From Candidatus Iainarchaeum sp. (GTDB lineage Archaea > Iainarchaeota > Iainarchaeia > Iainarchaeales > JAFCCJ01): DNA of 12,065 bases. Below, piece by piece: positions 4,343 to 8,046 of this stretch. Every line of letters begins with the position of its first letter. The stretch's first letter is position 1. The notes beneath the pieces were generated by a model that was given only the letters and a program-made list of their open reading frames with translations, did no database searches and was not told the DNA's origin. Where the stretch lies: contig JBDRHK010000021.1 in assembly GCA_043816965.1 (NCBI GenBank), positions 1 through 12,065 on the forward strand. The letters run 5' to 3'. The translations under genes were made by a program, and so were the position numbers.

Positions 4343-4597
4343 TTATGCTGTTTCTGAAATTGTTGCCATTTTCGCCTCTGGCTCTTTCAGAACCAAATAT
4401 TCATAGCTTTTCTGCAGTGCGATGATTGCCTTCGGGATATCGTTGGTTTTAAGGGAATTTGTGGATTTCCACTCATCCTTGTCCTTATAGCGCCTGTCGA
4501 AGGAAACTGAATGGAAACTTCTTCCCTCCTTTCCCTCGTTTTCCCATATCGCAACCTGTATTCCGCCTGCGGAAAATTTCTTTACCGGAGAACTCAT
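4343..4597 (-). CDS. Small putative single-stranded nucleic-acid-binding protein (PC4/SpoVG-like beta-sheet plus helix fold)
   Basis: PVKKFSAGGIQVAIWEN...SFHSVSFDRRYKDKDEWKST...NDIPKAIIALQKSYEYL: four aromatic/basic strands followed by a helix. A strong SD (GGGGGTGA, 4610-4603) supports ATG 4597 over GTG 4606. The ssDNA-binding function is inferred. Confidence 0.7.
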   Translation of the reverse strand: MSSPVKKFSAGGIQVAIWENEGKEGRSFHSVSFDRRYKDKDEWKSTNSLKTNDIPKAIIALQKSYEYLVLKEPEAKMATISETA

Positions 4598-4642
4598 AAT
4601 TTTCACCCCCTAAATTTCACTGAAATAATTGGATTTATTTTA

Positions 4643-4658
4643 TTTATATAGGCTTTCG
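4643..4658 (-). promoter_or_regulatory. BRE-TATA promoter of the PC4-like gene
   Basis: The minus strand reads CGAAAGCC-TATATAAA (4658-4643), the canonical archaeal BRE+TATA arrangement, predicting a start site near 4620 upstream of the SD. Confidence 0.65.
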
Positions 4659-4810
4659 GGGGTGGGTTTCCGGTGCGGAACGGCTATCTCCGTTCACACG
4701 ACCATCCCTGCTTCGCAGGGACATTGCTCACCCCCTTGGGCTCGCTACATGGCTCTATCAGGACATATGACGGCCTATACTGCGCATAAGCCTTGCTCAC
4801 TTCGTTCGCA
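4647..4810 (-). other. GC-rich, multi-hairpin non-coding element (probable structured ssDNA, alternatively an ncRNA)
   Basis: Complementary arms are TATAGGC 4647-4653/GCCTATA 4773-4779, GGGGGTG 4658-4664/CACCCCC 4729-4735, GAACGG 4678-4683/CCGTTC 4690-4695 and TCCCTGC 4705-4711/GCAGGGA 4715-4721. Two minus-strand GCGA...GAGC hairpins lie at 4726-4745 and 4795-4809. Confidence 0.7.
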
Positions 4811-4823
4811 TAAAAATAGACTT

Positions 4824-5483
4824 TTACTTTCGGCCAGCCCATTTCATTATTACCTGCAGGGTGTTTATTTGCGCATCCAAGTTGTCTATTTTCTTGTCAA
4901 TCATTTCGATCTCATTTGAGGAGCGCTCCATGCGAAATGCCTGCAGTTCGTTTGCGTATTTGGCGACCCTCTTGTCTTTTTTATAAACAATGGAATTCTG
5001 CACAGTTTCCGTTAAATTTTTCCTGTATTCAATGTCATTGACAAACATTTTCACCATCGGCTTCCATCGCGGATCGGCGACCAAATGTGCGGGCAGGTTC
5101 ACCGCCTTGGCGTCCTCCCTGTAATCGAAATCTGTCGCATATTTCACCATATGTTTCCAGTAGAGCGGCTCGGCCATTTTTTTCACATTGTTCACAAGAT
5201 GGTAGTTTTCGGCCGCGGAATGCGTTCTCGCCCAGTTCTTTTTTTGGAAAGCAAATTTGTCCCGCAGCTCCTGCAAATCCTTTATCTGGTCCTTCAATCT
5301 CCTTGGAGGCGGATAAATCAATTTCGGCCAGTCCCCATTGCTCCTCCCTACAGAGATTACCCCCCCATTTTTGAAGTAGGTTTTCAGGGCGGCAATTCTA
5401 TCCTCTCCCCCATTCGCCATAAATGGCTGTTCAGAGAACTGTTCGGAGAATTTCGCAAAACTCGATATAATATGGCTGGCCAT
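4824..5483 (-). CDS. Hypothetical helical/coiled-coil protein
   Basis: Long ORF with helical heptads at both ends. Start placed at ATG 5483 because the minus-strand BRE/TATA GAAAAAGTTTAATAA (5520-5506) lies about 23 nt upstream; the ORF track starts at 5522. Confidence 0.8.
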   Translation of the reverse strand: MASHIISSFAKFSEQFSEQPFMANGGEDRIAALKTYFKNGGVISVGRSNGDWPKLIYPPPRRLKDQIKDLQELRDKFAFQKKNWARTHSAAENYHLVNNVKKMAEPLYWKHMVKYATDFDYREDAKAVNLPAHLVADPRWKPMVKMFVNDIEYRKNLTETVQNSIVYKKDKRVAKYANELQAFRMERSSNEIEMIDKKIDNLDAQINTLQVIMKWAGRK

Positions 5484-5538
5484 TAGAAGAATAAGCCTCC
5501 TATGGTTATTAAACTTTTTCATTGGTTAAAGTTAGTTT

Positions 5539-6720: not shown

Positions 6721-8046
6721 TTAATTTGTTATTAAAATCCATTTCTTAAATCTTCCTTCCTTGCCAACGCATTCTATAATGTTTTTCGACCGCATATATT
6801 CAAGGTCGGAAACAACTGTTTTAAATTTCCTCCTTGTTTCAGACACTATATCTTTTGAAGTAAATGCTGTTCTACATTTCCCAATATCCGAAATAGTTGT
6901 AATAAAATTCGGTATTCTTTGATTTCTGCCGCAAGAACTGTTTTTGTATTTTCCAAGCAATTCTTTTAATTTATGGCCCTTAACCGAAGTATATCTTATT
7001 AGATTATATATGGATTCCATATTATTTTTCCCATGAACGATTAGATTCCACGAAGAACAGAGATCAAGATTTCTTTTTAGATAGATTTTTTCCAGGTTTA
7101 ATCTGGAATTTACTCCGATATTTTCCAATAAATGCTGGACAGAAATCAAAATCAGGGGAGGGTCTTCTCTAATTTTTTTAACTATGCCGGGATTTTCTTT
7201 TTGTGAAATTTGGTAAATGAAAGTAGTATTGCAGACCGGCAGAATCTTCATGTTTTCAATTTTGAGGTTAGAATCATCAAATTTATGACGATTATTCTGA
7301 GATATTCTGATGACTCTTCTATAAACGTTTCCTTCAGTGTCAATTAACGCCGCCAAAAAATTACCTAGAAAAGAAATATTTGTTTCCTCAAAAACCCATT
7401 TAGGCAAAGGATTGTTTGAATCTATCTGTTTAGTTGAAATTTCAAATCCGGCTAACTTAATTATCTGTGAAGCGATTTTTCCAACCGATATCTCTTTCAT
7501 ATTGTCTCTCTTATCGCGCACTTTACAAGTAAAACCAAACGAATTAAATTTGGTTTCTGCAAGATTGAGTAAAGTGTTATTTGTGTTCGTAAAACAGAAA
7601 GAGCCTAAATAAGAATCGAAAGAAAGGCCCAATATGTAAGCAAATAATGGGTCCCTTAAATCGAGCGGAAACTTTGCTTTTAAAACGCTGTGGTTGCCTT
7701 TTCCACTTTTAATCAATATGGCTTCTTTTTCTATTAAATCAAAATTAAAATCTAGGGAGTAGTGCTTTATGTACCATTTAACAGTTCTTAGTGTTTTTAC
7801 CGAAAGAGTTTGGGACTTTCCTTTTAAATAGTCATTTATGACATATAGGTTTCGCTTATTTTTTCTATGAAGATGATCTAGCCCATATTTCTCCGAAAGA
7901 TGGCAATAAATGTATTCTAACAATAGTTTTCCATTTTTCGAAAATCTGACTAAAAAATGTTCGGGAAAATCAGTTGGTTTGATTATGTACTTCCCTCTCT
8001 TTTGAGACCAAGCACGATATAGTCTTTTTAAATGTTCTTTATCCAT
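6721..8046 (-). CDS. Free-standing LAGLIDADG (intein/DOD-type) endonuclease-like protein with a C-terminal winged helix
   Basis: Second motif FLAALIDTEG preceded by LPKWVF; degenerate first motif FPLDL..PLFAYILGLSFD; block-H-like VQHLLENIGVNSR; C-terminal FTSKDIVSETRRKFKTVVSDLEYMRSKNIIECVG. Confidence 0.8.
   Translation of the reverse strand: MDKEHLKRLYRAWSQKRGKYIIKPTDFPEHFLVRFSKNGKLLLEYIYCHLSEKYGLDHLHRKNKRNLYVINDYLKGKSQTLSVKTLRTVKWYIKHYSLDFNFDLIEKEAILIKSGKGNHSVLKAKFPLDLRDPLFAYILGLSFDSYLGSFCFTNTNNTLLNLAETKFNSFGFTCKVRDKRDNMKEISVGKIASQIIKLAGFEISTKQIDSNNPLPKWVFEETNISFLGNFLAALIDTEGNVYRRVIRISQNNRHKFDDSNLKIENMKILPVCNTTFIYQISQKENPGIVKKIREDPPLILISVQHLLENIGVNSRLNLEKIYLKRNLDLCSSWNLIVHGKNNMESIYNLIRYTSVKGHKLKELLGKYKNSSCGRNQRIPNFITTISDIGKCRTAFTSKDIVSETRRKFKTVVSDLEYMRSKNIIECVGKEGRFKKWILITN

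Follow-up and report, generated by a model that had tools for sequence, protein, structure and literature searches.

Does the strongly folded segment that lies between the genes of a 232-aa and an 84-aa protein in Candidatus Iainarchaeum sp. serve the gene that follows it, or does it belong to something larger? The locus is located on contig JBDRHK010000021.1 (assembly GCA_043816965.1), whose 12,065-nt stretch was analyzed as a whole and is referred to below as the window. A first-pass annotation of this DNA had interpreted the segment as a dedicated cis element active in single-stranded DNA (ssDNA), for priming, nicking, recombination or protein loading, and forming a module with the 84-aa gene, which was regarded as encoding a PC4-like ssDNA-binding protein. 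The analysis leads to a different answer: the element is very probably a member of a dispersed family of mosaic hairpin repeats rather than an element specific to one gene.

On the minus strand, the region 4598-4830 folds with a predicted energy of -72.6 kcal/mol (z = -4.31; none of 200 shuffles folded as well), while the plus-strand fold is weaker (z = -2.00; 4 of 200 shuffles folded as well). Reading of the minus strand recovered all the hairpins that had been noticed initially, namely GCGAACGAAGTGAGC at 4809-4795, GCGAGCCCAAGGGGGTGAGC at 4745-4726, TCCCTGCGAAGCAGGGA at 4721-4705 and the GAACGG/CCGTTC hairpin closed by an AGATAG loop, as well as the 8-bp direct repeat GTGAGCAA, present at 4800-4793 and 4731-4724. 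Positions 4811-4677 consist of two head-to-tail units of approximately 70 nt, each composed of three hairpins designated A, B and C (Table 1). The initial list lacked this tandem organization, the second B hairpin and the decayed C hairpin (both in unit 1), and the recurrence of the unit across the genome. In addition, the range that had been assigned to the element, 4647-4810, holds only in part: the fold occupies 4811-4677, and the remaining 3' part, 4677-4647, lies outside the fold and corresponds to an extended promoter that recurs before many genes (CGCACCGGAAAC..CGAAA and then a TATA box). The two long-range stems that had been proposed receive no comparative support, and the only long-range pairing in the minimum-energy fold, between the promoter motif and the Shine-Dalgarno sequence, extends beyond that range. 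The general plan of the unit comprises hairpin A (GCGA-stem-loop-stem-GAGC, with tandem G.A pairs in the stem), hairpin B (a 9-bp hypervariable stem of almost any sequence, with a triloop that is mostly GAA, GCA, GGA or AAA) and hairpin C (GUCGUGU-stem-AGAUAG-stem, with a GAUAG-type loop).

This unit is multi-copy, as a count of genome copies, suggested by the first-pass annotation itself, established. The genomes compared were that of the window (G000; 1.34 Mb, 109 contigs, 86% complete) and that of a congener (G001; 89% complete). A DNA search with the region returned 19 matches in each of them, and three nhmmer iterations yielded 26 rows (25 at E<0.01). From an alignment of 16 standard units (A1), in which units with large insertions or lacking a hairpin were left out, a covariance model with three helices (R1) was built. 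It retrieved 30 matches in G001 and, at E<=0.1, 29 in G000, where one sequence shared by the overlapping ends of contigs C40 and C89 is counted twice. The match at C76 (E 0.059), weak and situated within an open reading frame (ORF), was excluded from later counts; the strong matches in G000 are all intergenic, and across both genomes the unit is always intergenic or located in a tRNA intron. Tandem arrays occur in G000 at C21, C5, C63 and C89.

Beyond these two species, the distribution of the unit is patchy and high copy number is confined to one genus. Among G000 and 60 relatives, 10 of 61 genomes were positive with R1 at E<=0.01, the eight besides G000 and G001 containing 1-7 weak copies each, and in an even sample of the phylum 13 of 151 genomes had a match at E<=1e-4. 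Distant copies nevertheless retain the plan, with GCGAG-stem-GAAA-stem-CGAGC, then CCAURC-GNA-GYAUGG, then a third hairpin of other sequence; several of those from other families also adjoin tRNA genes. No known RNA family was matched, as an Rfam check proposed beforehand made clear: the window gave no match at the gathering score, the best score in E-value mode on 4400-5000 was 19.4 bits against a cut-off of 60, and on ten unit-bearing loci the true tRNA was the sole call. A tRNA-like origin of the unit was ruled out, as RF00005 calls none of the units. When viral contigs were scanned with the C hairpin written as an IUPAC pattern, five loci matched, all at <=9 bits with the covariance model and with hairpins missing, which were regarded as chance matches. 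A description of the three-hairpin unit was not found in the literature searched; the supplementary MITE (miniature inverted-repeat transposable element) lists of PMC11602168, which lay outside this search, might hold related sequences.

Two sorts of variant units have been observed. In seven units (C5:8118-8033, C63:4728-4815 and C89:6977-7046 in G000; L014, L020, L028 and L030 in G001), the hairpin B loop contains an additional, nested hairpin, about GUGCCC-AACA-GGGUGC, so that the same insert occurs at different loci and in both species. A long hairpin C, with the inserted segment CCGGCCCUUAGG-N-CCUCCGCGAGGGAUAG, is found at C38:30696-30584, C28:11197-11112 and C22:18803-18856 in G000 and at L002 1426-1512 in G001; the congener's copy at the locus orthologous to that of the window is of this type.

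The fold of the unit is kept on one strand by compensatory changes. RNAalifold run on A1 predicted the B and C helices, with compensatory changes at 13 of 15 pairs. A larger alignment (A3) included 33 units of both genomes and was fitted to R1, and as such leans towards structure; in A3, 95.3% of 639 stem cells are standard pairs, compared with 68.9% in shuffles (0 of 500 reaching the observed value) and 22-42% with slid partners, and both sides have changed at 17 of 21 pairs. Because of the slid controls and of the independent MAFFT/RNAalifold result, we argue that the structure signal is real despite the model-fitted alignment. In the stem cells of A3, G.U pairs outnumber A.C pairs (31 vs 12), and the B loops (GAA, GCA, GGA or AAA) are purine-rich on the sense strand of the unit, their pyrimidine complement, such as UUC, being listed in 0 of 33 units. 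This G.U excess and these purine-rich loops indicate that the folded strand is the unit sense strand, i.e. the minus strand of the window, in agreement with the strand that the first-pass annotation had favored. Its emphasis on tandem G.A pairs and GNA-type loops was equally sound, both being conserved (tandem GA/GA in 26 of 33 units). Loops of the GNRA (GAAA, GCGA) and UACG types also occur, in copies from several families, and together with the G.U pairs they fit RNA as well as ssDNA. A kink-turn, or L7Ae site, was considered for hairpin A and rejected: read from the sequence, its G.A pairs form part of a symmetric 2x2 loop, and the 3-nt bulge that defines such a motif is missing. An integron attC-like site was considered for hairpin C, whose GTTGA/TCAAC partially resembles the R'/R'' consensus.

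Comparison of the two congeners revealed that whole units are gained or lost precisely and that hairpins A, B and C behave as interchangeable modules. Of the nine loci that were alignable, eight have a unit in both species. At the ninth, a clean 60-nt presence/absence was found (G001 L007 1490-1551 vs G000 C31:3254/3255), the unit sitting precisely at the junction of the upstream flank with a promoter module, on the 5' side of the latter. The number of units also differs, with two in G000 vs one in G001 at the window locus and at C5, and one in G000 vs two, head to head, in G001 at C22. Moreover, single hairpins have been replaced wholesale between near-identical flanks (A and B at C50, A at C9, C at C26 and C22), and the replacing variants are found at other loci of the same genome. 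At C50 and C22, the C hairpin and the promoter are ~100% identical between the congeners, compared with ~85% for coding DNA. When each hairpin was clustered at up to 2 edits, the 33 units fell into 15 types of A, 28 of B and 16 of C; among the 528 unit pairs, none had all three types in common, 43 shared only A and 44 only C. The family is hence a mosaic of exchangeable modules in fixed order and not a set of recent whole-unit copies. Among public sequencing runs, no RNA run covering the region was listed. The contigs of four DNA runs, short, of low depth and breaking in the repeat, displayed no joints or indels and have no bearing on strain polymorphism.

The position of the unit relative to genes is constrained as well. 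In G000, 28 tRNAs were found with RF00005, ORFs were called naively (the longest non-overlapping ones of at least 70 aa), and the unit matches were grouped into 23 arrays. The C end of seven of these (C4, C22a, C25, C26, C66 twice and C81) adjoins the 3' end of a tRNA gene, in antisense and with a gap of 0-3 nt; for two further arrays (C31 and C89/C40), the next sequence resembles by eye an antisense tRNA 3' half that RF00005 does not call. In three of 23 (C19, C70 and C90) the C end adjoins, in sense and with no gap, the 5' end of a tRNA gene. Ten of 23, plus a doubtful one (C38), turn it towards a co-oriented protein ORF, seven of these contacting a conserved promoter module. In none of the 23 arrays is the C end directed at the 3' side of a protein gene. 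The upstream neighbor is a co-oriented ORF in 13 of 23 cases, a divergent ORF in eight and a tRNA in two, and no conserved promoter was found before the arrays. On the unit strand, the sequence 3' of hairpin C would be acceptor-stem-like in both tRNA orientations, since the 3' end of a tRNA, once reverse-complemented, resembles its 5' end.

Some of the copies at tRNA genes deserve mention. In G001, a tRNA gene at L020 1391-1574 (minus strand; G001:C55) has a 112-nt intron at the anticodon loop, most of which is an antisense three-hairpin unit (L020 1450-1537, plus strand). At C66:1681-2069 in G000, two convergent intron-bearing tRNA genes are separated by two head-to-head units, each C end adjoining one tRNA 3' end. 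The gene of tRNA-Ser(UGA) has, in both species (G000 C70:1190-1681 and G001 L030), a 5' leader of ~105 nt containing the unit, preceded by a fully conserved promoter, GAAAGC-TTTTAAAT, ~21 nt before the unit start. Owing to this promoter, the unit of the tRNA-Ser(UGA) leader is probably transcribed. Absence of RNase P RNA was envisaged as a reason for structured tRNA leaders and dismissed, as RF00373 was detected in G001 and in all 12 of the high-quality relatives examined. The G000 assembly, which is 86% complete, gave no match, and most likely the gene lies in the unassembled part of the genome. Since RNase P RNA is present in G001 and the relatives, unit-bearing tRNA leaders should be removable in the ordinary way.

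Collectively, these data make us lean, with modest confidence, towards a lineage-specific non-coding three-hairpin repeat, an archaeal counterpart of the REP (repetitive extragenic palindrome) and BIME (bacterial interspersed mosaic element) repeats, with turnover at the DNA level. Such a repeat would be kept and reshuffled by module exchange or gene conversion, with occasional insertion or deletion of a unit, through a process likely reading one strand in its folded single-stranded form. It would settle at permissive boundaries, i.e. tRNA gene ends and the 5' borders of promoters, the 84-aa gene downstream being presumably a bystander, and copies inside transcripts (pre-tRNA leaders, trailers and the intron) would be carried as RNA hairpins and removed by normal processing. 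Several observations weigh against this reading. The clean indel at L007/C31 displays neither a target-site duplication, beyond a trivial GC, nor a terminal inverted repeat, and no two units are near-identical throughout, which, unlike the situation of REPINs, speaks against recent whole-unit copy-and-paste. Searches of G000 (86% complete) and G001 (89% complete) detected neither a Y1 transposase (PF01797) nor TnpB, the incompleteness leaving a small doubt as regards the transposase, and the six insertion sequence (IS) loci of the relatives G026 and G049 contain no unit (best covariance-model score 9.1 bits, for partial hairpins). A link with IS200/IS605 elements or TnpB was accordingly discarded. 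The presence of GNRA and UACG loops, typical of RNA, and the naive ORF calling, which qualifies the neighborhood counts, have also to be considered. Finally, the position of the unit is the same in both congeners at 8 of 9 loci and its fold is kept despite fast sequence change, which selection for a cellular function could explain equally well.

That function might be exerted by RNA: as the main rival, the units may be functional modules of read-through, leader or trailer RNA, in which stable hairpin stacks define or protect transcript ends or guide pre-tRNA processing, in the way that bacterial REPs stabilize upstream mRNA. The strongly conserved fold with its compensatory changes and G.U pairs, the loop types just mentioned, the kept positions, the three tRNAs of which the unit is the immediate 5' leader, the BRE/TATA (B recognition element and TATA box) conserved in both congeners before the tRNA-Ser unit and the 13 arrays downstream of a co-oriented ORF all fit this proposal. 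We nevertheless consider it doubtful, since the orientation varies (antisense to the tRNA in 7-9 trailers and one intron, sense in three leaders), the upstream ORF is divergent at 8 of 23 arrays, no conserved promoter precedes the arrays, and the unit stands, before protein genes, upstream of the TATA box and therefore outside the mRNA of that gene; patchy distribution, lineage-specific copy number and clean presence/absence between congeners are further points to the contrary. That the C end is invariably turned towards a promoter or the end of a tRNA gene, that seven arrays are fused to the conserved promoter motif and that C hairpin and promoter are nearly invariant at C50 and C22 would rather suit a DNA-level protein-binding or insulating element, for instance a roadblock or a supercoiling buffer between packed transcription units. 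Such an element is improbable: conserved tandem G.A mismatches, asymmetric loops and G.U pairs point to a folded single strand and not to a duplex site, the promoter motif mostly occurs without an upstream unit (~33 copies), and no candidate binding protein was identified. A more speculative proposal, to which we give rather little credence, is that of transposase-less, structure-selected hairpin modules of DPANN archaea, inserted or copied on one strand directly 5' of another folded element (a tRNA cloverleaf on either strand, a tRNA intron or a promoter module). It would represent a new mechanism, relying on a host ssDNA- or RNA-processing enzyme or on an RNA-mediated tRNA-processing route, and would explain why the same unit end is found at the tRNA acceptor end whichever the direction of the tRNA.

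There remains the proposal from which the analysis started, an ssDNA element working with the PC4-like protein, and it appears highly improbable. The unit does lie upstream of the 84-aa gene in both congeners, and C-GNA-G loops and tandem G.A pairs are stable in DNA. The structural model of the protein (four strands and a helix, pLDDT 83.1, i.e. predicted local distance difference test) is possibly compatible in topology with a PC4/Pur-alpha (Whirly-like) fold, and such proteins are among the weak top rows of Foldseek, where E ranged from 0.25 to 1.2 (Borrelia Pur-alpha, E 0.25; a PC4 homolog, E 0.39). None of these values is significant; likewise, VIA gave Pur-alpha a non-significant Z of 4.1, below that of its best match, an unrelated YbaB-like protein (Z 5.1). 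Pfam had no match to the protein even at E 10, a significant sequence match in the PDB was not found, and none of its 133 homologs in DPANN archaea has a Pfam domain; W18, N20, Y37, W43, D53 and P55 are invariant in 34 sequences of the family. The distributions also disagree: of 121 genomes of the order, 68 encode the protein, whereas the unit was found in 13 of the 151 genomes sampled from the phylum. At 29 homolog loci searched with the unfiltered covariance model, the unit was upstream in a single one, that of the congener, a weak match at the G049 locus being downstream and on the other strand, and the other 22 arrays adjoin unrelated genes or tRNAs. Thus, no conserved structure was found upstream of homologs and the element turned out to belong to a repeat family, both of them outcomes that the first-pass annotation had named in advance as contradicting its own proposal.

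If the unit is a repeat, how does it relate to known ones? As described for REPs and BIMEs (PMC3733652), the units are short, GC-rich, imperfect hairpins, extragenic and multi-copy, with a lineage-specific copy number, forming clusters of variant modules whose stems vary with compensatory changes; similarly to CGTC-tagged REPs (PMC3733652), no dedicated transposase gene was found. However, the archaeal unit is an ordered triplet of different hairpins (A-B-C), whereas a REP is a single palindrome (PMC3733652), and while head-to-head dimers predominate among REPs according to the same text (PMC3733652), unit arrays are mostly head-to-tail (four in G000) and rarely head-to-head (one in G000 and one in G001). 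Conserved tandem G.A pairs, tight association with tRNA ends and the lack of near-identical whole copies are further differences. REPs have a conserved unpaired GTAG or CGTC tag at one end (PMC3733652); in the archaeal family, GTAGCGAG opens some units and (C/G)GTC is found in the B-C linker of many, neither being constant across the 33 units (no formal count was made). The units share with REPIN-RAYT systems (PMC3116915, PMC2817692) the nature of non-autonomous hairpin repeats folding as single strands and persisting in one lineage. Those systems are described as requiring RAYT and showing near-identical copies (PMC3116915, PMC2817692), in contrast to the archaeal units, which are not inverted doublets, lack a master-sequence cloud and have no RAYT/Y1 detected in G000 or G001.

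Among archaea, the transposed tRNA introns of Thermoproteales, reported to have spread at the DNA level by a mechanism that is not known (Fujishima et al. 2010, as described in PMC4090602), also correspond to a similar short sequence found at several tRNA genes of different identity in one lineage. Here a single intron copy was found, in antisense, and most units are outside tRNA genes, at borders and promoters. DPANN genomes are, according to a MITE census (PMC11602168), among those with the highest archaeal MITE densities, and the units resemble archaeal MITEs and PATEs in being small gene-less repeats in the intergenic DNA of small archaeal genomes. They differ from MITEs in that their ends, the A and C hairpins, are unrelated and that the clean indel shows no terminal inverted repeats or target-site duplication, and from PATEs and IS200/IS605 elements in having no similarity to the IS200/IS605 loci of related genomes (best 9.1 bits).

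Small hairpin repeats (REP, BIME, REPIN) have been well studied in bacteria, with few descriptions from archaea. The minimal DPANN genome analyzed here maintains ~30 ordered three-hairpin copies whose fold is strictly preserved and whose sequence is reshuffled. Should the unit prove able to move without a transposase, or its hairpins to shape the ends of transcripts in this near-spacerless genome, this would bear on the origin of tRNA leaders, trailers and introns in archaea and on how reduced genomes tolerate repeats. For annotation, folded intergenic repeats should not be taken as riboswitch-like or origin-like elements of the adjoining gene.

Table 1. Features of the repeat array and of its surroundings in the window.
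Feature	Coordinates	Strand	Basis
Repeat unit 1 (A-B-C), more decayed copy	4746..4811	-	R1 match, 51.5 bits, E 2e-11
Unit 1 hairpin A: GC-GA-AC-GAA-GT-GA-GC	4809-4795	-	Sequence and fold
Unit 1 hairpin B: GGCTTATGC-GCA-GTATAGGCC	4792-4772	-	Sequence and fold
Unit 1 C region, decayed: GATAG loop, mismatched stem	4771-4746	-	Sequence and fold
Repeat unit 2 (A-B-C), canonical copy	4677..4747	-	R1 match, 78.3 bits, E 7.5e-19
Unit 2 hairpin A: tandem G.A and one G.U pair	4745-4726	-	Sequence and fold
Unit 2 hairpin B: C-GAA-G triloop	4722-4704	-	Sequence and fold
Unit 2 B-C linker GGTCGTGT	4703-4696	-	Sequence
Unit 2 hairpin C: GAACGG, AGATAG, CCGTTC	4695-4690, 4689-4684, 4683-4678	-	Sequence and fold
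T5 run between stop codon of upstream 232-aa gene (4824-5522) and unit 1	4812..4816	-	Sequence
Conserved promoter-upstream motif CGCACCGGAAACCCACCCCCGAAA, adjoining the unit, outside the repeat	4654..4677	-	Recurs before TATA boxes and gene starts
BRE-like CGAAAGCC and TATA box TATATAAATA of 84-aa gene (putative)	4641..4658	-	Read from sequence
Shine-Dalgarno GGGGGTGA of 84-aa gene	4610-4603	-	Sequence
Gene of 84-aa conserved DPANN protein ("PC4-like" in the first-pass annotation)	4343..4597	-	Translation

Regarding the surroundings of the array, oligo-T tracts terminate transcription in archaea, and the T5 run upstream of unit 1 is on this basis a possible terminator; T runs are not consistently present upstream of other unit arrays. 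Downstream, the promoter module spans 4677-4641 in the window. In general, the module consists of CGCACCGGAAACCYACYCCCGAAA followed by a TATA box and is positioned ~23 nt ahead of the start codon (ATG) in many genes, most of them leaderless; the CGAAA-TATA arrangement of the 84-aa gene is the same as that found ~23 nt before the ATG of leaderless genes elsewhere. A promoter function of 4641-4658 is therefore predicted from the sequence. The 10-mer core GCAYCGGAAR has 42 matches in G000, compared with ~7 expected from base composition, and 7 of the 23 arrays adjoin the motif. A riboswitch or leader of the 84-aa gene was considered for the element and rejected, as BRE and TATA box stand between unit and gene and the same promoter serves leaderless genes elsewhere. 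An extended form of the module, (C)GCAYCGGAAAC-CYACYCCCGAAA and a TATA box, occurs ~55 nt before the start codon of many genes, at two sites of the window and at about 40 others in G000; the second window copy (8103-8050, minus strand) precedes the gene of a 441-aa LAGLIDADG-like protein (6721-8046). A few variants are palindromic (CCGGAAA-N5-TTCCGG), and the module may represent a regulon or the binding site of a general factor.

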